Of a DNA stretch of 64,000 nt, positions 10,091 through 38,336 are shown piece after piece. The translations under genes and the position numbers were made by a program. Numbering within the stretch: position 1 is the first letter of the stretch; every line of letters starts with the position of its first letter. This DNA is from a virus. Where the stretch lies: IMG/VR virus record IMGVR_UViG_3300045988_042432; one strand, given 5' to 3'. The notes under the pieces are model-generated. The model was not told the DNA's origin, did no database searches, and saw nothing but the letters and a program-made list of their open reading frames with translations.

Positions 10091-10609
10091 GGGCCTAGAT
10101 TTGGTTTTGACAGGCGATTACAAGTTAGTAAGACGTGTAGAGTTCGTACCAACTCTTTAATAATGATACAGCAATTTAAGTGGAAACACTGAAGTAAGAA
10201 TGGCAGCCTAAGCTGCTGGCTTATCTATTAATTTAGCTCTAAGTCGGGTTAATTGGAGAGACCTAGAAACAGAAGAGGTGTGGGAAGAAGCGTATAGAGC
10301 AGCCCACTTAACTTGAAAGCCAAAGGTTAGTAAAGCTGAAATCTCCACTACCTATCTATGGGTTACAAATAGAAACGTTCTCCAACGTAAATGGAGTGGT
10401 GGAGCGACCGTTCGGTCAAGCCCAGTTTGGTAGTTTGTGAACAACTAAGTCGTAGCCCTACGAGGGAGACGTAATTGGTGAATTAACACTCGGCTTCTTA
10501 GTAAAACTACCTACATGCTGAACTCAACAGCTGATGTAATAAAATAGAGACACACGTAATCTTATTAATGAGGGTTGTTTGGACGGCGGTTCGACTCCGC
10601 CTAGGTCCA
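10091..10609 (+). ncRNA. ssrA: tmRNA (transfer-messenger RNA)
   Basis: 5' end is GGGCCTAGATTTGGTTTTGACAGG. The 3' T arm is GGCGG-TTCGACT-CCGCC followed by TAGGTCC-A. Acceptor GGGCCTA/TAGGTCC has G3:U70. Tag ORF 10182-10210 is GGA AAC ACT GAA GTA AGA ATG GCA GCC TAA, giving GNTEVRMAA*. Confidence 0.8.
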
Positions 10610-10637
10610 CTATTATTAACGTTTAAATATCAATTTT

Positions 10638-10991
10638 ATGGGATTATTTATTATTGCAGTGATTGTTTTACTTATTTGTGTATGTCTTTCGCGAGTAGGG
10701 TCTAAAGACCTAAGAGAAGTTGCAGTGGCAGTTGAGATTGTATTCTCAATGGCAACAGTTGTGGCAGCGATTTCATTACCATTCGCTATTAAGGGAAATA
10801 CTCAAATTATTGGCAAGCATGCAGTGCTAAAAGAAACATTGGAGGCTACTGATAGGAAGAATTACTATCTTATATCTAGTGATGTTTTAGAGCTCAATTA
10901 TACTATTATGAATCATAGGAACTTTGTAGACAATTTCTGGATTGGGATATGGTATGATAAGGACGTAGCTAAATTGGAACTATTAAAATGA
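10638..10991 (+). CDS. membrane protein (117 aa)
   Basis: Track ORF with two N-terminal hydrophobic helices. Confidence 0.6.
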   Translation: MGLFIIAVIVLLICVCLSRVGSKDLREVAVAVEIVFSMATVVAAISLPFAIKGNTQIIGKHAVLKETLEATDRKNYYLISSDVLELNYTIMNHRNFVDNFWIGIWYDKDVAKLELLK

Positions 10992-11269
10992 AAGCAAGGT
11001 TATTAAAGAAACTTCGTAAGGAGTCAAAGAAGCTGAAATTAATAAGAGGTGAGGATTATCAATACATAGTTACTGATAGTCCTCATGACATATTAAGACC
11101 AAAGCTTGATACTTACTACAGTGGCACATACTACTGTGGTCAAGAATTATTATTTGACGAAGATGTAATTGCATGGTTACATCAATGCAGACGTAATTGG
11201 ATTCTGTCCGAGATTAAACGAATGCGTGTACATCTACGTAAATCTCGAATTAGAATATATAAAGAGTAA
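10988..11269 (+). CDS. basic hypothetical protein (93 aa)
   Basis: Track ORF with a 4-nt overlap. Confidence 0.6.
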   Translation: MKARLLKKLRKESKKLKLIRGEDYQYIVTDSPHDILRPKLDTYYSGTYYCGQELLFDEDVIAWLHQCRRNWILSEIKRMRVHLRKSRIRIYKE

Positions 11270-11295
11270 TTGTTTCACTAAAAGTTATTGAAATT

Positions 11296-11793
11296 ATGGG
11301 AAAGAGGTCAATATCCGACGATGACATCGTTCGGATTTTTAACACGGTAAAGGCAATGAATCCTGGGCCTTTTAAGATTACAGATGTAGTCAGGGATTTA
11401 AAGAAGAATGGCTTCCCAAGGCCAGAGAACTTCATGGCTGTTTTGCGTAAGCAGGGAGTGATTGAACCTGACGGTGCTATCTATACTAAAGGATTTATGT
11501 GGAAAGAACATGGCCCTTTGTATAAGACTAGAGTCATTGAATTGATAACTATCAGCAGGAAAGAAATGGCTAAGATACAGAGAGATGCATATGCTAAGAG
11601 AATGGCTATTAAAGCTGGCACTTACGTAGCACCTCCTAAACCTAAGCCACAAGCTGAAATGGAAGCTGTTACAGAAGCGGAAGAAGACAAACATCTGATT
11701 CCTATTACACAGGCTGAAATGGAAGCAATCAAATTCCTGAAATCGAGAGGTTATAGAATCACTAAATTAATAACAGTTGAACAGATAGTATGA
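11296..11793 (+). CDS. hypothetical protein (165 aa)
   Basis: Track ORF. Confidence 0.65.
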   Translation: MGKRSISDDDIVRIFNTVKAMNPGPFKITDVVRDLKKNGFPRPENFMAVLRKQGVIEPDGAIYTKGFMWKEHGPLYKTRVIELITISRKEMAKIQRDAYAKRMAIKAGTYVAPPKPKPQAEMEAVTEAEEDKHLIPITQAEMEAIKFLKSRGYRITKLITVEQIV

Positions 11794-12487: not shown

Positions 12488-12557
12488 CCACTATTGACGA
12501 ATAGTGGTAGCAAAACTTGGTCTGAAGAACCAGTAGACATATTCCGGAGTATGTCTA
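12488..12557 (+). ncRNA. candidate structured RNA: three adjacent hairpins including a tRNA-Phe-like anticodon arm
   Basis: First hairpin CCACTATT-gacg-AATAGTGG (12488-12507). Second TTGGT-CTGAAGA-ACCAG (12517-12533). Third TAGACATA-ttccggag-TATGTCTA (12534-12557). All lie in a 380-nt ORF-free gap. Confidence 0.3.
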
Positions 12558-12865
12558 TGACTTAAAGGCTATATCAAAGAGTTGAAACCTGTATCTATTC
12601 GAACAGTAGGAGTTCACCTGATTAAGCATCAGAAAACAGTAGTGCAAATCTACTATAGATATTGTGTAAGAGAGAATCTACACGGTCTGTATTATATAAT
12701 CAGCATGCAGATAGGTCACCAAGCAAACCTCTTTCCTGCCTGGTCAAGTGTGCATTACGGTCTGTAAGTGGCGAGCGGGTTAACGTATGTCCGATTGCCG
12801 TAATGCCGCTTGTTTATTGTTTAGAATAAAGAAAGACTCTCATAACAATAAATTTAAACAAAGAG

Positions 12866-16866: not shown

Positions 16867-16938
16867 GCCCCATTACTTCAGTGGTAGAAGAGCAAATTCT
16901 AAACTTGTATGGCGTTGGTTCGAGTCCAACATGGGGCA
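16867..16938 (+). tRNA. amber suppressor tRNA, anticodon CTA
   Basis: 72-nt cloverleaf. Acceptor GCCCCAT/ATGGGGC. D arm CTTC-AGTGGTA-GAAG. Anticodon arm GCAAA-TTCTAAA-CTTGT with CTA at 16899-16901 and an A31:C39 mismatch. T arm GTTGG-TTCGAGT-CCAAC. Confidence 0.8.
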
Positions 16939-16940
16939 CT

Positions 16941-18142: not shown

Positions 18143-18499
18143 ATGGAAAGACAAAGAGAAATAAGAATATGTTCTAAACACGGAGAAACAGAGTTTGCTC
18201 TTGAGAAATCTGGACGCTGGCGTTGCCTAAAATGTCAAGTAGAAGCAACTCAAAAGAGACGTAACAAAGTTAAAGAGATGGCTGTAGAGTACAAAGGTGG
18301 TAAATGTTCTGTTTGTGGATATGACAGATGTGCGGATGCTTTAGAGTTTCATCATTTAGACCCTTCCAAAAAGGATTTTGGAATATCTTCTAAAGGATAT
18401 ACCAGGTCTTGGGATAAAGTAAAAGAGGAGCTTGATAAATGTATCTTGGTATGCTCTAACTGTCATAGAGAAATACATTCAGGACTTATAAAGACATAA
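18143..18499 (+). CDS. HNH homing-type endonuclease
   Basis: Track ORF of 118 aa with CSVCGY...EFHHLDP...LVCSNCHREIH (HNH with zinc-ribbon cysteines). Confidence 0.85.
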   Translation: MERQREIRICSKHGETEFALEKSGRWRCLKCQVEATQKRRNKVKEMAVEYKGGKCSVCGYDRCADALEFHHLDPSKKDFGISSKGYTRSWDKVKEELDKCILVCSNCHREIHSGLIKT

Positions 18500-18506
18500 A
18501 ATCAAT

Positions 18507-18593
18507 GTGCAGTTGGCCGAGTGGTCGAAGGCAATAGACTGTTAATCTATCGTGACGAAAGTCCCACCGCAAGTTCGAATCTTGCACTGCACG
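18507..18593 (+). tRNA. class II (Ser-like) tRNA with anticodon GTT
   Basis: Acceptor GTGCAGT/ACTGCAC with G73. Ser-type D arm (TGGCCGAGTGGTCGAAGGC). Anticodon arm ATAGA-CTGTTAA-TCTAT. 18-nt variable arm. T arm GCAAG-TTCGAAT-CTTGC. Confidence 0.7.
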
Positions 18594-18718
18594 CAAACAC
18601 ATTAGATTATTAACATTAAATTATAAGATTATGCATAGTTTTGGTGCTTACATTGTGGGAGCTATAGTGCTAGTAGTATTGTATTACATCTTTAAAGATT
18701 CCACAATCTAAAATTGAT

Positions 18719-20664: not shown

Positions 20665-21243
20665 ATGAATCGAGAAGAATTAGAAGATTTGAAAATAACC
20701 AAGATTAGTGAAGAGGAATATGAACGCCTTAAAGATTCAGACGAAGGAGAAGCTATGGAAGTGTCAATTGACTCATTAAAAGCTGAACAAGAGAAGCTAA
20801 AAGAGTCAGCATCATTACTTGATGAAGCAAAGAAGGCATTTTCAGCTTATTGGTTCTTACTGTCCCTCTTTATAGGACAGAATCTATGTTTGGGTGTTGT
20901 ATTGTGTCAAATCTATTCAGCATGGTCTAAAGGAGAACCCCTCGGATTTATGGTACTATGTGCCATATCAATAATAGTGGCTGCTTCATATTCATGGAAT
21001 GCAATAAGACCATATCGAGAACGATATAAGAACTATAAACAAGTTCGCACTGCTTATAGTCGTCTGGTTGAAGCTAATAGAGCTGTGTTGGAATTACTGG
21101 AATATGTAGAATCTAAGCCCAAAGAAGAAAGAGCTGAAGAAGCCGAAGAGTTAGCAGAGCCAGTAGTTATGGCTGTAGCTGAACTATTCTTTGCTAGAAT
21201 GGCATATACTAGGGCACTAAAAGAAGGATTAGAGTTGCAATAA
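20665..21243 (+). CDS. membrane protein with acidic coiled termini (192 aa)
   Basis: Track ORF with central hydrophobic helices. Confidence 0.65.
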   Translation: MNREELEDLKITKISEEEYERLKDSDEGEAMEVSIDSLKAEQEKLKESASLLDEAKKAFSAYWFLLSLFIGQNLCLGVVLCQIYSAWSKGEPLGFMVLCAISIIVAASYSWNAIRPYRERYKNYKQVRTAYSRLVEANRAVLELLEYVESKPKEERAEEAEELAEPVVMAVAELFFARMAYTRALKEGLELQ

Positions 21244-21251
21244 CTCAATAT

Positions 21252-21325
21252 GGTGGCATTAGCTCAATTGGCAGAGCATTAGGTTGTGGTTCTAAGGGTT
21301 ACGAGTTCAAGTCTCGTATGTCACC
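21252..21325 (+). tRNA. tRNA-His(GTG) with encoded G-1
   Basis: G-1 at 21252 opposite C73. Acceptor GTGGCAT/ATGTCAC. Anticodon arm TTAGG-TTGTGGT-TCTAA. T arm ACGAG-TTCAAGT-CTCGT. Confidence 0.85.
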
Positions 21326-21624
21326 CAATTCTGCTGTTTAAGTATAAACGTATCATAAATCTTCCTGTTTGGTTTGACTTATTCAGCAGAGTTATATTTT
21401 ATCTTGAAACGGAATGCCGAGGATGTGGTTAGGTGAAAATCCTAAAGTGGAATGTAGGGTACGTTGCGTGACGAAGTAATGGGAGTAGGTGCGATGGCAG
21501 ATTAATTAATGTTGAGGCCTCGTTAATATATGTATAGCTGTACAGCACCGAAGGATTTAGACTGTCCAAAGCAACTGGCGTAATAAAGCATAAAATCCAG
21601 TGAAGACGTATGTGTAGGCAGTAT

Positions 21625-21696
21625 GGGGCGGTAGCTCAATGGTAGAGCGCAGGTCTGAAGAACCTGGCGTTGGGGGTTCGATTCCCTTCTGCCCCA
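21625..21696 (+). tRNA. tRNA-Phe(GAA)
   Basis: Acceptor GGGGCGG/CTGCCCC. Anticodon arm CAGGT-CTGAAGA-ACCTG. T arm GGGGG-TTCGATT-CCCTT. Confidence 0.9.
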
Positions 21697-21701
21697 CCTA
21701 T

Positions 21702-22172
21702 ATGGGAACTTTAATAAGTAAATTTAGTGATGAAGAGTTTAGTAATATAGTTAAGGAATCTGAAACAGTTTCCGAAATAGCTTCTAAGCTCGGCTATAAG
21801 TCAAAGGGAGGTGGAGTTACTAGACTGATTAAAGATAAGATAGAAGAGCTGGGTATAGACATATCTCATTTTAATAGATATGCTAAAAATCATTCGCCTG
21901 AAAGGTATAAGTCCTTAGAAGATATTCTAGTAGAAGATTCTACTTATACCAACAACACTTCTTTAAAGAAGAGGCTATTGGAATCTAATTTACTAGAATA
22001 TAAGTGTAGTATATGTGGTATTAATGAGTGGCAAGGAAAGCCGTTATCATTACAACTGGACCATATTAATGGGAATAACAAGGATAATAGAATAGAAAAT
22101 CTTAGATTGCTATGTCCTAATTGCCATTCCCAAACTGATACGTTTTCAGGTAAAAACGCATCACATTATTAA
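21702..22172 (+). CDS. HNH homing-type endonuclease
   Basis: Track ORF 21639..22172 begins inside tRNA-Phe. ATG 21702 is 5 nt after the tRNA. Motif: CSICG...LQLDHINGNNKDNRIENLRLLCPNCHSQT. It is a paralog of the 35306..35779 product. Confidence 0.85.
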   Translation: MGTLISKFSDEEFSNIVKESETVSEIASKLGYKSKGGGVTRLIKDKIEELGIDISHFNRYAKNHSPERYKSLEDILVEDSTYTNNTSLKKRLLESNLLEYKCSICGINEWQGKPLSLQLDHINGNNKDNRIENLRLLCPNCHSQTDTFSGKNASHY

Positions 22173-22183
22173 AATCCAGAGAT

Positions 22184-22208
22184 AATGGTTCGACTCCATT
22201 TCGCCCCA
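22184..22208 (+). pseudogene. orphan tRNA 3' fragment (T arm + acceptor 3' strand)
   Basis: AATGG-TTCGACT-CCATT-TCGCCCC-A lies right after the HNH stop. TCGCCCC could pair with the GGGGCGG 5' strand of tRNA-Phe, but no matching anticodon stem is present. Confidence 0.5.
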
Positions 22209-22237
22209 CTTTAATAGATTAAATAATTATTAGTAAG

Positions 22238-22759
22238 ATGGACAATAACTTGTATTATATCTTAGGAGGCATCGCCTATGGTATATTTATCCTACAATTC
22301 ATAATATCATGGGTTGCTGGGGAGTTCGATGTCGATGTAGACTTTGATGGTGATGCTGATTTTGATGTCAGTGATGTTGTATCCTTTAAAGGATTTATCC
22401 ATTTCTTCATGGGATTCGGAGGATGGACATCTATTAAGCAATTATTAGGTTATGAAGTAACCTGGATTGATTGGTTAATAGGATTCTTTATAGGTCTTGT
22501 GTTTGTATTTATGCTGTATCATTTATATAAGTTCTGTATGAAATTGCAGAACCTTCCTAAAGACGAACCGAAGACTAACTTAGTTGGCAGAACTGCTACT
22601 ATCTATGTACATTTAGGTGAAGGGCGCCATTTGGCATCCGTGAACATAAGTGGAGCATTGAGAGAAGTAGAAGTTGTATCTCTTAATAAGAAGATATATC
22701 CTGTCAATGAGCCAGTAACGATTCGTAAATACGAAGACAATAAATTATACATAGATTAA
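22238..22759 (+). CDS. NfeD-like membrane protein
   Basis: Track ORF of 173 aa. N-terminal TM helices plus a C-terminal beta-rich domain (GRTATIYVHLGEGRHLASVNISGALREVEVVSL...), directly upstream of the flotillin gene. Confidence 0.55.
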   Translation: MDNNLYYILGGIAYGIFILQFIISWVAGEFDVDVDFDGDADFDVSDVVSFKGFIHFFMGFGGWTSIKQLLGYEVTWIDWLIGFFIGLVFVFMLYHLYKFCMKLQNLPKDEPKTNLVGRTATIYVHLGEGRHLASVNISGALREVEVVSLNKKIYPVNEPVTIRKYEDNKLYID

Positions 22760-30574: not shown

Positions 30575-30653
30575 TCAGGGACGTATCCCCTCTGCCTTAT
30601 ACGCTGTTGAAAGGGTAATTGGTCACATGTGGGTTCAATCCCCACCGTCCCTA
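30575..30653 (+). tRNA. tRNA-like element with perfect acceptor and T arm but no foldable D/anticodon core (possible pseudogene)
   Basis: Acceptor AGGGACG/CGTCCCT. T arm GTGGG-TTCAATC-CCCAC. I could not fold the 45-nt core into D and anticodon arms. Confidence 0.35.
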
Positions 30654-35015: not shown

Positions 35016-35192
35016 ATGGAAACAGCATTAATGATTACTGTAGTCATTGCATTTGTGGCTGCATTAATAGCTATGTTACTAACTATATGGGATTGTGACT
35101 TTAAATGGGTTAAGATATTCTTAAGTATAGCTGCTATAAGTACTATAGGAATGATAATTGTAGTTACAATCAAGGTCATGATGTCAGTATAA
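35016..35192 (+). CDS. small two-TM membrane protein (58 aa)
   Basis: Own translation: METALMITVVIAFVAALIAMLLTIWDCDFKWVKIFLSIAAISTIGMIIVVTIKVMMSV*. Confidence 0.5.
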   Translation: METALMITVVIAFVAALIAMLLTIWDCDFKWVKIFLSIAAISTIGMIIVVTIKVMMSV

Positions 35193-35198
35193 GGGTAT

Positions 35199-35231
35199 GG
35201 CTTGATGGCGAAATTGGTAGACGCCCCAGAT
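35199..35231 (+). pseudogene. 5' half of an interrupted class II tRNA-Leu
   Basis: GGCTTGA-TG-GCG-AAATTGGTAGA-CGC-C-CCAGA is a Leu-type acceptor, D arm and 5' anticodon-stem strand. The partner strands lie at 35887-35933. Confidence 0.6.
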
Positions 35232-35279
35232 GTTCACAAATTTTAACTTAACGAATTAGGTAGACTCAAAATTTAAGAT

Positions 35280-35287
35280 TATCTTTG
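35280..35287 (+). promoter_or_regulatory. -7 box TATCTTTG upstream of the HNH gene
   Basis: Matches TAnnTTTG. No clean -33 TTTG was seen. Confidence 0.35.
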
Positions 35288-35305
35288 TGTATTAAATATA
35301 CAAGG

Positions 35306-35779
35306 ATGAGTAAACGAAAATGGACAGACGACCAATTCATTGAAGCAGTTAAGTCTAGCTTCTCTTATGCAGAAGTAATGAAGAAGATTGGACTTAAACC
35401 TGCTGGCAGTAACTATGATACTGTTAAGAGGAAGATTTGTGAATTACGCTTAGATACATCACACATGACTGGTAAGGTTTGGAATCAAGGCGAAAGGTAC
35501 AGACCTATAAAAGAAGCTCGACCACTAGAAGAAATTTTAGTAGAGCATTCTTCATATGTTAGTACACATCATCTTAAAGAAAGACTTTTAAAGGAGGGTG
35601 TAAAAGAACACAGATGCGAGTGTTGCGGTAATGCAGAGTGGATGGGAGAACCTATTGCACTTGAATTACACCACGTAAATGGTGTTAAAGATGACCTTAG
35701 AATAGAAAACTTGCAAATTCTTTGTCCTAATTGTCACGCTTTTACAGATAATTATCGTGGTAGAAACATAAGCAAATAG
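35306..35779 (+). CDS. HNH homing-type endonuclease
   Basis: Track ORF 35285..35779; ATG 35306. Motif: CECCG...LELHHVNGVKDDLRIENLQILCPNCHAFT. It ends in TAG. Confidence 0.85.
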   Translation: MSKRKWTDDQFIEAVKSSFSYAEVMKKIGLKPAGSNYDTVKRKICELRLDTSHMTGKVWNQGERYRPIKEARPLEEILVEHSSYVSTHHLKERLLKEGVKEHRCECCGNAEWMGEPIALELHHVNGVKDDLRIENLQILCPNCHAFTDNYRGRNISK

Positions 35780-35786
35780 TAATGAT

Positions 35787-35871
35787 GGCGCAGTGTCGGA
35801 ACTGGTATACGAAACGCACTTAAAATGCGTTGCCCTTTATGGGATTGAGGGTTCGATTCCCTTCTGCGTCA
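35787..35871 (+). tRNA. tRNA-Leu(TAA), class II
   Basis: Acceptor GGCGCAG/CTGCGTC. Anticodon arm ACGCA-CTTAAAA-TGCGT. Long variable arm. T arm GAGGG-TTCGATT-CCCTT. Confidence 0.85.
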
Positions 35872-35880
35872 CAAATGTAT

Positions 35881-35933
35881 CTAAGCTCTGGTGTCCAGAA
35901 ATGGACGTGTGGGTTCGAATCCCACTCAAGCTA
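35881..35933 (+). pseudogene. 3' half of the interrupted class II tRNA-Leu
   Basis: CTAAGC-TCTGG (pairs with CCAGA at 35226-35230). Variable arm TGTCCAGAAATGGACGT. T arm GTGGG-TTCGAAT-CCCAC. Acceptor strand TCAAGCT-A pairs with GGCTTGA. Confidence 0.6.
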
Positions 35934-35958
35934 CTAATAATTAAAGGAAGGAGGATTT

Positions 35959-36135
35959 ATGAAAGAACTATTAGAACAGCTAAAAGAACAGTTTGCAGGA
36001 AATGAAATTATGACTGCTGTTACTGATACAGTGGAGAAAGCATATAATATTGGATATTCTGAAGGTTTTGCTGCTGGTGAAGAAGCAATGAAGAATCTAA
36101 TTGACAAGTTAACATCACCTACAATATCTAATTAA
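35959..36135 (+). CDS. small hypothetical protein (58 aa)
   Basis: Own translation: MKELLEQLKEQFAGNEIMTAVTDTVEKAYNIGYSEGFAAGEEAMKNLIDKLTSPTISN*. It is preceded by AAGGAAGGAGGA. Confidence 0.5.
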   Translation: MKELLEQLKEQFAGNEIMTAVTDTVEKAYNIGYSEGFAAGEEAMKNLIDKLTSPTISN

Positions 36136-38253: not shown

Positions 38254-38336
38254 GCGGTTGTAGTGTAAAGGAGGGCACATCACTAATTTTAGTATGCGCA
38301 CAAGTGATAGATTGGGTTCGATTCCCGACAGCCGCT
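38254..38336 (+). tRNA. tRNA-like gene with 18-nt anticodon loop (related to tRNA-Ala at 20564)
   Basis: Acceptor GCGGTTG/CAGCCGC. D region GTAGTGTAAAGG...CAC. Anticodon stem TCACT/AGTGA encloses AATTTTAGTATGCGCACA. T arm TTGGG-TTCGATT-CCCGA. Confidence 0.45.

Follow-up and report, generated by a model that had tools for sequence, protein, structure and literature searches.

Homing endonucleases in essential genes are usually said to hide in introns or inteins or to sit between genes. In collaborative homing, the free-standing F-CphI adjoins a psbA intron in cyanophage; immunity comes from the intron interrupting the target, and the endonuclease is co-inherited with the neighbouring target-gene difference. 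A further arrangement is found in the mORF gene hybrids of fungal mitochondria, described for atp6 of Allomyces macrogynus and for atp6, atp9, cox2 and nad3 of Glomus (PMC3630166). Here, an endonuclease ORF moves with a foreign part-copy of its target gene and inserts there; once joined to the native 5′ part, the foreign segment assumes the function of the gene, and the native 3′ part is pushed downstream as a remnant, where it still is nearly the same as in close relatives (PMC3630166). In phage tRNA clusters, T4 SegB and T5 F-TflI/II/IV act as free-standing homing endonucleases. The passages available from the SegB and F-Tfl papers (PMC2330249; PMC13096335) describe SegB as recognising a tRNA-gene motif and driving biased inheritance of itself and of neighbouring tRNA genes, and its homologs as statistically associated with tRNA genes; within those passages there is no mention of nested half tRNA genes or of a dedicated replacement isoacceptor.

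We analysed a 64,000-nt stretch of viral DNA (IMG/VR record IMGVR_UViG_3300045988_042432), hereafter the window, in which an HNH endonuclease gene follows a tRNA-Phe gene and is itself followed by the 3′ part of another. The Phe locus has the following features.

21591–21600, + strand: upstream copy of the ten-nt repeat TAAAATCCAG, in the conserved 5′ flank, at the same position in HNH-less relatives
21625–21635, + strand: left junction zone GGGGCGGTAGC, the first 11 nt common to the resident and incoming tRNA-Phe alleles
21625–21696, + strand: tRNA-Phe(GAA), 72 nt, functional-looking, replacement allele "type B" (Rfam tRNA 67.3 bits, ARAGORN)
21636–22170, + strand: 535-nt block missing from empty-site relatives, from the alignment with these relatives
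21702–22172, + strand: HNH endonuclease gene, 156 aa (ATG at 21702, stop codon 22170–22172)
22170–22179, + strand: second copy of TAAAATCCAG, made up of the T of the HNH stop codon and A35–G43 of the resident tRNA-Phe
22171–22208, + strand: orphan 3′ part of the resident 75-nt tRNA-Phe, 38 nt, canonical positions 35–73

The ends of the 72-nt tRNA-Phe were placed at 21625–21696 by Rfam and at 21625–21698 by ARAGORN. Within the 535-nt block, nt 12–72 of this incoming tRNA are followed by a spacer of 5 nt and then by the HNH ORF, of whose stop codon only the first base is included. The orphan overlaps the last two bases of that codon, the resident gene resuming at A35, and the right junction falls between G34 and A35 of the resident tRNA-Phe. 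No tRNA was called at the orphan; its T arm and acceptor strand (AATGG-TTCGACT-CCATT-TCGCCCC-A) are present at 22184–22208, and the latter can pair with GGGGCGG.

We compared the locus with its relatives. The site is empty in 28 related gut-phage contigs (11 from IMG/VR and 17 from metagenomes), which carry a single intact 75-nt tRNA-Phe and no HNH gene at the syntenic position, 298 nt after tRNA-His. The window is identical to these relatives through tRNA nt 11 and diverges at the very next base, and linear nt 12–37 of the resident tRNA-Phe (26 nt) are replaced by 535 foreign bases. Window positions 22171–22208 are then identical to the last 38 nt of the empty-site tRNA-Phe (38/38), whereas the orphan matches the inserted tRNA-Phe allele at only 25/38 positions. 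Even with up to 3 mismatches allowed, no copy of the replaced nt 12–37 was found in the 64 kb. The filled site was present in at least eight independent assemblies (L112–L119), with the block and both junctions identical to the window, which rules out an assembly artefact, and 189 indexed blocks of the assembly collection contain exactly this HNH protein. A metagenome scan with the orphan 38-mer returned intact sites only, and GenBank phages yielded no megablast match to the locus. This is a presence/absence polymorphism at one locus among near-identical genomes (28 empty vs at least 8 filled), as expected of a homing endonuclease gene, and the ancestral site in these gut phages evidently held one 75-nt tRNA-Phe.

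These comparisons also bear on the initial annotation of the window, which had placed both repeat copies, the tRNA-Phe and the HNH ORF where we find them. It had suggested a synteny check with related phages, and the HNH-less relatives indeed have an intact tRNA-Phe matching the orphan. It had given the orphan as the T arm and acceptor strand alone, a correct sighting of what is really a longer remnant (22171–22208). Its proposal of a replacement scar was right in that the orphan derives from a resident tRNA, but it is the 5′ part that was replaced and the 3′ part that survived. Likewise, the tRNA-Phe that it described as intact is called by both Rfam and ARAGORN, yet is hybrid in origin, its first 11 nt being common to the resident allele.

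Three further loci show other states. A more distant relative, L012, has a 72-nt tRNA-Phe as its resident gene at 2599–2670, without HNH or orphan; judged by eye over the full length, its sequence is the same as that of the 72-nt tRNA-Phe of the window, of which a 25-mer match was verified by tool. L118 has an L012-type upstream flank and is window-identical from about 21631, one recombinant with a lineage switch at the cassette. In L133, a type-B tRNA-Phe is followed after 4 nt by an HNH gene (74% identical), with no orphan and with other neighbouring genes, which may represent a donor-like state. The L133 stop region (...AACTAAATATATG) makes an AAA(T) microhomology, only 3–4 nt in length, available to the resident ...GAAAATCC.

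The HNH ORF matched the Pfam families HNH (27.0 bits, cut-off 21.4) and HNH_3 (26.9 bits, cut-off 24.8) as well as phrog_10822 (1.8e-55). It is 43% identical (E 2e-42) to a second ORF of the window at 35306–35779, of which the initial annotation had correctly called it a paralog. Across 32 HNH homologs, C102, C105, N133, C138, C141 and H142 are invariant and D120-H121 is near-invariant (at least 90% conserved). In the AlphaFold2 model (pLDDT 86), strands are found at residues 118–121 and 134–137 and a helix at 139–142; the protein consists of an N-terminal helical domain and a C-terminal beta-beta-alpha-metal nuclease domain. It has the motif, the metal ligands and the two Cys pairs of the HNH (His-Me finger) nucleases, and conservation of the catalytic and zinc-binding residues suggests that the nuclease is intact. 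A PDB sequence search and a Foldseek search of the PDB with the model gave weak similarity, solely to HNH domains, and recovered neither I-HmuI nor another characterised homing enzyme. In annotated records, HNH homologs adjoin tRNA genes in Pakpunavirus LCK69 and Rhodococcus phage Dorin, and since these phages are cultured, experiments are feasible.

The paralog lies within a tRNA-Leu gene; for comparison we used the 86-nt tRNA-Leu that is found intact in L016 and at 16 other loci.

35199–35231, + strand: 5′ part (33 nt) of the resident tRNA-Leu(UAA), identical to L016 and the 16 other loci
35232–35881, + strand: 650-nt insert with the HNH paralog (35306–35779) and an intact replacement tRNA-Leu(UAA) (35787–35872)
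35882–35933, + strand: 3′ part (52 nt, from T34) of the resident tRNA-Leu(UAA)

The order at this locus is resident 5′ half, HNH, replacement tRNA-Leu, resident 3′ half. The two halves account for 85 of the 86 nt (33 + 52), so that one anticodon-loop T has been lost, and the sequences beside the halves are directly repeated, not complementary. A relative, L028, has a group I intron at U34|A35 of tRNA-Leu (RF00028, 42.7 bits, E 2.9e-9). The HNH protein of this intron shares 78% amino acid identity with that of the window Leu locus, and the leader upstream of the ORF in the Leu insert is homologous to that of the intron. The same phage population holds three states: the site may be empty, occupied by the cassette or, in the case of Leu, occupied by an intron with the orthologous nuclease.

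Nested tRNA halves recur in other phages. In the unrelated phage L043, the order is 5′ half, replacement tRNA-Phe, HNH, 3′ half, and Phe nesting is also found in L123, L124, L128–L131, L126 and L032. L066 has Gln nesting with both halves confirmed in the sequence, and L049 shares its order of HNH then replacement tRNA-Gln, together with a tRNA-Gln-like 5′ half. The junctions lie within the anticodon arm at the window Leu locus and at all of these nested Phe and Gln loci. Among the best 80 IMG/VR homolog loci, 50 have a tRNA within 120 nt. An orphan T arm and acceptor strand follows directly after the cassette in 13 of the 80, against about 1.5 expected (~9-fold), a strict scan that undercounts (L043 and L032 were missed) and may include tRNAs uncalled by ARAGORN. 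Orphan tRNA ends beside this HNH family in unrelated phages link the nuclease to tRNA turnover. The initial annotation had regarded the Phe locus as a second case of such a link, and the Leu locus, the clearer of the two, agrees with this.

The spare tRNA type of one cassette is the victim of another, and HNH genes 74–79% identical to that of the window are linked to differing replacement tRNA types (B, C and D). Successive cassettes appear to target earlier-delivered alleles, with A replaced by B, C or D, B by C, and C by D. The right junction, where the stop codon abuts the 3′ half, is similar in several phages; given these similar junctions with differing tRNA types, some loci may share one old insertion, with the upstream tRNA exchanged afterwards, instead of having arisen by separate homing events.

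We propose that the Phe locus is a mobile cassette in which a gene for an HNH homing endonuclease is closely coupled to a divergent tRNA-Phe gene, and we consider this reading probable. During co-infection, the HNH enzyme would cut the resident tRNA-Phe gene in the DNA of the anticodon arm, near 34/35; that it cleaves, and where, is suggested by the clustering of junction positions in the anticodon arm across loci. The break would be repaired by copying from the cassette-bearing genome, the left end engaging via the highly conserved upstream flank and the common first 11 tRNA nt. In the founding event, the right end would have been joined at the break by a microhomology of a few bases (AAA/AAAA), presumably because the downstream flank of the donor was too divergent. 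On the best reading, the left junction would be homologous and the right junction would mark the putative anticodon-loop cut. The new allele would be immune, because its target no longer exists and the incoming tRNA departs from the resident one along the whole anticodon arm. The cassette supplies a working tRNA-Phe, so that the phage would lose nothing. The cassette is now perfectly homologous to empty sites on both sides, which would allow efficient homing within the population.

More tentatively, and with slightly less than even confidence, we suggest that such "tRNA-swap" homing cassettes are a widespread, so far undescribed class of phage element, in which an HNH enzyme targeting the anticodon arm is permanently coupled to a resistant isoacceptor tRNA and nested in the resident tRNA. 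As the design recurs in many phages, it seems to offer such nuclease genes a general means of entering tRNA genes without harm. A literature search found no account of an HNH gene and a replacement tRNA nested in a tRNA gene, which is not proof of novelty.

Of the other explanations, the one that survives best is a decayed group I intron: the HNH gene would have begun as the ORF of a self-splicing intron that interrupted the resident tRNA-Phe at its anticodon loop, with the ribozyme lost later on and a second tRNA-Phe acquired as compensation. The right junction at 34|35 coincides exactly with the position where group I introns of tRNA-Leu(UAA) canonically insert, and the L028 intron, with its HNH so close to that of the Leu locus and the leader that it shares with the Leu insert, also speaks for such an origin. 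We nevertheless consider it unlikely. RF00028 was not found in window positions 21200–22400 (Phe, E up to 10) or 35100–36000 (Leu, E up to 1), the Leu insert having no ribozyme core, and a permissive Rfam search of both inserts returned neither an intron nor another family; the L028 intron, our positive control, was detected. No intron was detected at eleven other homolog loci at E up to 1e-3. Since the HNH stop codon overlaps the 3′ remnant, there is no space for a ribozyme core at the Phe locus, 26 nt of the 5′ exon are missing, and L133 has the close homolog as a free-standing gene right behind tRNA-Phe, without exon remnants. With no ribozyme core and with incomplete exons, a group I intron was rejected for both loci. 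In the model of Bonocora and Shub, free-standing endonuclease genes reportedly invade introns, and this accepted direction of evolution would make the intron form the derived one.

Alternatively, two tRNA-Phe alleles may have undergone illegitimate recombination in a co-infection independently of the nuclease, with the HNH gene as a passenger. Phage tRNA arrays are mosaic and L118 points to recombination at the Phe locus itself. However, a half-gene architecture recurs beside the HNH family in unrelated phages and in three isotypes, with junctions always in the anticodon arm, and directly behind the cassettes orphan tRNA ends are about nine times as frequent as expected. We regard a passenger HNH as quite improbable.

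Similarly low is the probability that we give to the orphan having been kept because it is useful, for instance as a tRNA-like 3′ handle for processing or for HNH mRNA stability, or as a decoy for host anticodon nucleases. In the window, L032, L043, L123, L126 and L128–L131, the stop codon is where the tRNA 3′ part begins, and the window copy is unmutated. In the passages available, SegB expression is believed to be under the control of tRNA processing within its transcript (PMC2330249). However, the perfect identity of the orphan is accounted for by recency, as the flanks are equally identical. The orphan has a shortened T loop in L032 and is absent from L133 and the Asn cassette, and the window copy, folded alone, is no better than shuffles (z −0.5), with a weak T hairpin at most. 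A promoter and terminator scan found nothing exceeding background, the orphan being without terminator character. We also considered a split or trans-spliced tRNA of the Nanoarchaeum type, and rejected it because no matching 5′ half for the Phe remnant was found in the 64-kb window at up to 3 mismatches and because the sequences beside the Leu halves are not complementary. In the best reading of the locus, the orphan is probably a non-functional scar.

The ten-nt repeats, which the initial annotation had taken to flank the unit, do not border it. TAAAATCCAG occurs twice in the 64 kb, at the two positions listed above, against a mean of 0.19 matches in shuffled sequences (at least 2 matches in 2/100 shuffles). 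The upstream copy, inside a predicted conserved hairpin (ACUGG...CCAGU), is ordinary conserved flank of every empty site, as seen in L001, L004, L005, L007, L008, L009 and L011 and also in the divergent L012. As for the second copy, nine of its ten bases (AAAATCCAG) already lie within the resident tRNA of the empty-site genomes, the tenth coming from the HNH stop codon. The sequence following the upstream AAAATCCAG, considered as an older scar, has no similarity to the tRNA 3′ part. A transposon-like insertion duplicating a 10-bp target, for which the two exact 10-mers with no others in 64 kb might speak, can be practically dismissed, and with it a target-site duplication, because the upstream copy pre-exists in all empty sites, outside the inserted block and 34 nt upstream of the real left junction (which lies within the first 11 nt of the tRNA), and because nine of the ten bases are already in the empty-site tRNA itself.

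The window cassette is a nuclease gene that breaks its target yet brings the substitute. If the "tRNA-swap" reading is true, it would be a third cost-free route into an essential gene besides self-splicing introns and inteins, a major driver of tRNA sequence turnover in phages, and a source or sink for tRNA group I introns. If cleavage is confirmed, there would be a direct, testable route between free-standing and intron-encoded endonucleases, and there would be an explanation for why phage tRNA arrays contain orphan tRNA fragments and isoacceptors in duplicate. It would also be a mechanism that shuffles phage tRNA alleles, relevant to escape from host anticodon nucleases, and would provide a family of small nucleases naturally specific for tRNA-gene sequences.

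Comparison with the known systems indicates where the cassette stands. The fungal mitochondrial mORF gene hybrid is the nearest analogue of the Phe cassette and shares the exact layout of 21625–22208; as in these hybrids, the remnant agrees with relatives (38/38) better than with the inserted allele (25/38). However, the mORF targets are mitochondrial genes for proteins, the enzymes are of the LAGLIDADG or GIY-YIG type and an in-frame C-terminal coding segment serves as the replacement, whereas the window has a phage tRNA gene and an HNH enzyme. In addition, the Leu, Gln and L043 cassettes, unlike mORF, have a complete stand-alone tRNA nested between both halves. SegB, as the available passages describe it, is a GIY-YIG enzyme that recognises the T-psi-C region and sits between genes, whereas the window nuclease would target the anticodon arm and the resident gene is broken. 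The L028 intron resembles the Leu element of the window in using the same gene, a site within 1–2 nt, an orthologous HNH and a homologous leader, and both the intron and the window elements solve the problem of residing in an essential RNA gene. Splicing of the intron regenerates the tRNA, whereas the window elements, which lack a ribozyme, make up for the loss with a spare gene, their exons being irrecoverable with 1 nt lost at Leu and 26 nt at Phe. Finally, as with F-CphI, the window has a free-standing nuclease whose immunity would rest on a neighbouring, co-inherited sequence difference in the target gene; in contrast to F-CphI, this immunity would come from a divergent replacement gene together with the disrupted resident.

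The elements that the initial annotation had placed at the tRNA-Phe locus are all present in the window.

21591-21600 and 22170-22179: TAAAATCCAG, exact matches, the only two copies in the 64-kb window
21625-21696: tRNA-Phe(GAA), between both TAAAATCCAG copies, Rfam score of 67.3 bits
21702-22172: 156-aa HNH ORF, likewise between both copies
22184-22208: T arm and acceptor strand AATGG-TTCGACT-CCATT-TCGCCCC-A, 3' of the HNH stop codon

The ORF scores above the Pfam cut-offs for both HNH and HNH_3, matches PHROG 10822 ('HNH endonuclease') at 1.8e-55 and shares 43% identity with the ORF at 35306-35779. The tRNA finders run on the window called no tRNA at 22184-22208.

We compared this locus with those of relatives. 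An exact search with the orphan 25-mer returned 11 IMG/VR contigs and a 38-mer search returned 18 metagenome contigs, labelled human gut, all with the tRNA gene order of the window. In 11/11 IMG/VR and 17/18 metagenome contigs, a single intact 75-nt tRNA-Phe(GAA), GGGGCGGTAGCGCAGGTGGTCAGTTCGCGCTGGACTGAAAATCCAGAGATAATGGTTCGACTCCATTTCGCCCCA, has the matched sequence as its 3' end; the 18th contig begins only 7 nt upstream of the match and was left unscored. In these empty sites 298 nt separate tRNA-His from the intact gene, and the tRNA-Phe locus lacks an HNH gene (11 IMG/VR and 17 metagenome contigs). Alignment reveals that the window equals the empty sites over the entire upstream spacer and tRNA nt 1-11 (21625-21635), diverges over 535 nt (21636-22170) and resumes identity from 22171 onward. 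We read the orphan, which overlaps the final two bases of the HNH stop codon, as the last 38 nt of the resident gene (canonical positions 35-73), because identity resumes at A35 of the resident tRNA. The earlier view of a nuclease-linked scar of tRNA replacement holds in outline, although not for the part replaced: the last 38 nt remain, and it is linear nt 12-37 of the resident gene that have no copy anywhere in the whole window.

Nor does the 10-nt repeat delimit the unit, as had been supposed. Chance expectation for TAAAATCCAG is 0.19 matches, with two or more in 2/100 shuffles. The upstream copy stands at the identical place in every empty-site genome and in the more divergent relative L012, AAAATCCAG already occurs twice in empty sites (in the flank and on the 3' side of the tRNA anticodon arm), and the HNH stop codon contributes, with its T, the tenth matching base of the second copy in the window. 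TAAAATCCAG thus qualifies neither as a target-site duplication nor as the end of a cassette, and the real left junction lies 34 nt downstream of the upstream copy. This copy lies in a predicted hairpin, ACUGG-N18-CCAGU, resembling the resident tRNA-Phe anticodon stem with the loop enlarged. Across divergent phage lineages the ~215-nt tRNA-His/tRNA-Phe spacer (21405-21624) hardly varies outside one hairpin of variable length, a pattern typical of structured RNA; the spacer has no match in Rfam.

The 72-nt tRNA-Phe allele of the window (type B; the resident 75-nt gene is type A) appears to be the native tRNA-Phe of L012, judged over the whole sequence by eye and over a 25-mer by tool. In L012 it occupies the same syntenic site with neither HNH nor orphan. 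L133, a different 175-kb phage with a gene order unlike that of the window, carries an HNH gene 74% identical to ours 4 nt behind a type-B tRNA-Phe, with no tRNA remnant downstream of the HNH, an arrangement that looks like the free-standing donor state as expected. The gap from tRNA-Phe to ATG is kept at 1-18 nt in the window, L032, L043, L123, L128, L131 and L133, and the HNH proteins across these tight-linkage loci share just 51-79% identity. The index of public assemblies lists the exact HNH protein of the window in 189 blocks, and 8 inspected contigs (L112-L119) have the same junctions and orphan. One of these, L118, has an L012-type upstream flank and is window-identical from about 21631, which would place the cassette at a recombination boundary.

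Nested architectures like that of the window recur in unrelated phages. At least 589 relatives of the HNH family were confirmed in IMG/VR (1378 proteins matched at E up to 1e-30), and in 50 of the best 80 IMG/VR loci a tRNA lies within 120 nt. A strict scan, which missed L043 and L032, found an orphan T arm and acceptor no more than 75 nt after the cassette in 13/80 loci; the remaining sequence of these loci gives an expectation of about 1.5. All placeable junctions fall in the anticodon arm, at canonical positions of about 26 to 39, and a group I intron was detectable in 0/11 orphan-bearing homolog loci.

Table. Order of elements at homologous loci (prime, cassette-borne tRNA).
L043: 5' half GGGGCGGTAGCTCAATGGTAGAGCAC, intact tRNA-Phe', HNH, 3' half ...GGTTCGATTCCTCCCCGCCCCA
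L123, L124, L128-L130: 5' half, TTAATTA-type linker, tRNA-Phe', HNH, 3' half
L131: 5' half, differing linker, tRNA-Phe', HNH, 3' half
L126, L032: tRNA-Phe', HNH, 3' half; no 5' half seen
L066: 5' half, HNH, tRNA-Gln', 3' half
L049: 5' half, HNH, tRNA-Gln'

Among cultured phages, the annotated records of Rhodococcus phage Dorin and Pakpunavirus LCK69 show tRNA-Glu, HNH and tRNA-Gly without spacers and an HNH homolog within a tRNA array, respectively. Inspection by eye of the Felix O1-like phage EcSzw-2 showed tRNA-like sequence after the HNH stop, and Staphylococcus phage phiSA12 and Synechococcus phage S-CRM01 have homologs as well.

Half genes were compared with intact cassette tRNAs to type victims and replacements, types C and D being other cassette alleles.

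Table. Victim and replacement tRNA-Phe types.
Window: victim A, replacement B; orphan 38/38 to A, 25/38 to B
L043: victim B, replacement C; 5' half 25/26 to B
L123: victim A, replacement C; 5' half 30/34 to A
L131: victim A, replacement D; 5' fragment matches A
L128, L129: victim C, replacement D; 5' halves 30/34 to C

A given tRNA type can be protected passenger in one cassette and broken target in another, a pattern that fits successive rounds of invasion. Shared ancestry of several loci, followed by exchange of the upstream tRNA, is a possible alternative, and the 3' junction is indeed alike in several of the victim/replacement loci.

A sister locus involves tRNA-Leu.

35199-35933: a resident 86-nt tRNA-Leu(UAA) gene in two halves, of 33 nt and 52 nt

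The gene is intact in 17 related loci, and one anticodon-loop T is missing from the halves in the window. Between them lies a 650-nt insert in which the HNH paralog is accompanied by a complete tRNA-Leu(UAA) of different sequence; Rfam found no intron in this insert. The relative L028 (IMGVR_UViG_3300045988_069849) has a tRNA-Leu(UAA) with an HNH-encoding group I intron at 10571-11473 (RF00028, 42.7 bits, E 2.9e-9, below the gathering score of 50). It lies at the canonical U34/A35 position and ends in ...TATG/AAGC, and its ORF is 78% identical to the Leu-locus HNH of the window. This is a genuine group I intron and the counterpart of our Leu cassette. The leader upstream of the ORF is common to both, and the place of the ribozyme core is occupied in the window by a tRNA. 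The Leu cassette, the L028 intron and the intact genes are therefore three states of one target (cassette-occupied, intron-occupied and empty) in one phage population. One copy of TCACAAAT lies at 35235-35242, within the Leu insert near its left end, and another at about 35868-35875, at the tRNA-Leu' 3' end and trailer, and TAATTA(A) stands at both Phe-cassette ends in L123, L128 and L129. Such short direct repeats may point to tandem or circular donor forms.

Other nuclease and tRNA features were observed. A third unit (18143-18594) comprises a 118-aa HNH-type ORF of a different family (18143-18499) and, 7 nt downstream, an unusual 88-nt tRNA-Asn(GTT) (18507-18594). About 8 nt of the resident gene (GGCGAGTT) are left here, with no 3' orphan; in the relatives L004 and L011 the ORF is missing and the tRNA-Asn at that place is 72-73 nt long. 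The tRNA arrays of relatives also differ in the presence of further HNH-like ORFs (L005, about 2001-2165; L009, 6117-6284, minus strand; L027, 3179-3379), two of these ORFs lying between tRNA-Trp and tRNA-Ser(UGA) and that of L027 in a stretch without the usual tRNA-Met. A tRNA-like element at 30577-30653 (acceptor AGGGACG/CGTCCCT, good T arm, aberrant D and anticodon region), called by neither ARAGORN nor Rfam, stands where the relative L007 has tRNA-Met(CAT) (10702-10776). Another tRNA-like gene is suggested at 38254-38336 by a T arm and matching acceptor strands, GCGGTTG...CAGCCGC, missed by ARAGORN. The window also contains a tmRNA (10091-10612, 85.8 bits), a RAGATH-34 RNA (12488-12595, 120.9 bits) and a CUA-anticodon (amber suppressor-type) tRNA (16867-16939), the last suggesting stop-codon recoding. 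ORF 29321-30388 matches phrog_1211 (PurZ-like adenylosuccinate-synthetase homolog) at 6e-45, which hints at 2-aminoadenine for adenine in the phage DNA; if so, the HNH enzymes would need to tolerate the modification.

Taken together, the Phe cassette is polymorphic for presence and absence, has exact junctions, a tRNA of foreign origin and an intact, conserved nuclease, and recurs. We propose that the HNH enzyme targets the resident tRNA gene and cuts it within the DNA encoding the anticodon arm, cleavage of this allele being the putative key step, and that repair would copy tRNA' and HNH out of a donor. The left end would be engaged via the conserved flank and the 11 nt in common. In the founding event the right end may have joined at the break through AAA(A) microhomology, for which we compared the L133 stop region (...CTAAATAT) with the resident sequence (...TGAAAATCC). 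The filled allele would be immune without loss of function, and later homing could proceed by ordinary homology. Nothing about the orphan points to a function. Its fold is only weak, the orphan of L032 has a shortened T loop, and L133 and the Asn unit lack an orphan.

Compared with known elements, the cassette lacks the hallmarks of a group I intron, of a transposon with target duplication and of a split tRNA gene. The literature searched gave no description of the nested HNH and tRNA design, and the interest of the cassette lies chiefly in the recurrence of this design. By mechanism, the nearest analogue is the fungal mitochondrial mORF gene hybrid, known from Allomyces atp6 and Glomus atp6, atp9, cox2 and nad3, in which an endonuclease ORF brings a foreign 3' portion of the target gene and pushes the native 3' portion downstream (PMC3630166). 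The closest ecological analogues are the T4 SegB and T5 F-Tfl enzymes of phage tRNA clusters (PMC2330249; PMC13096335).
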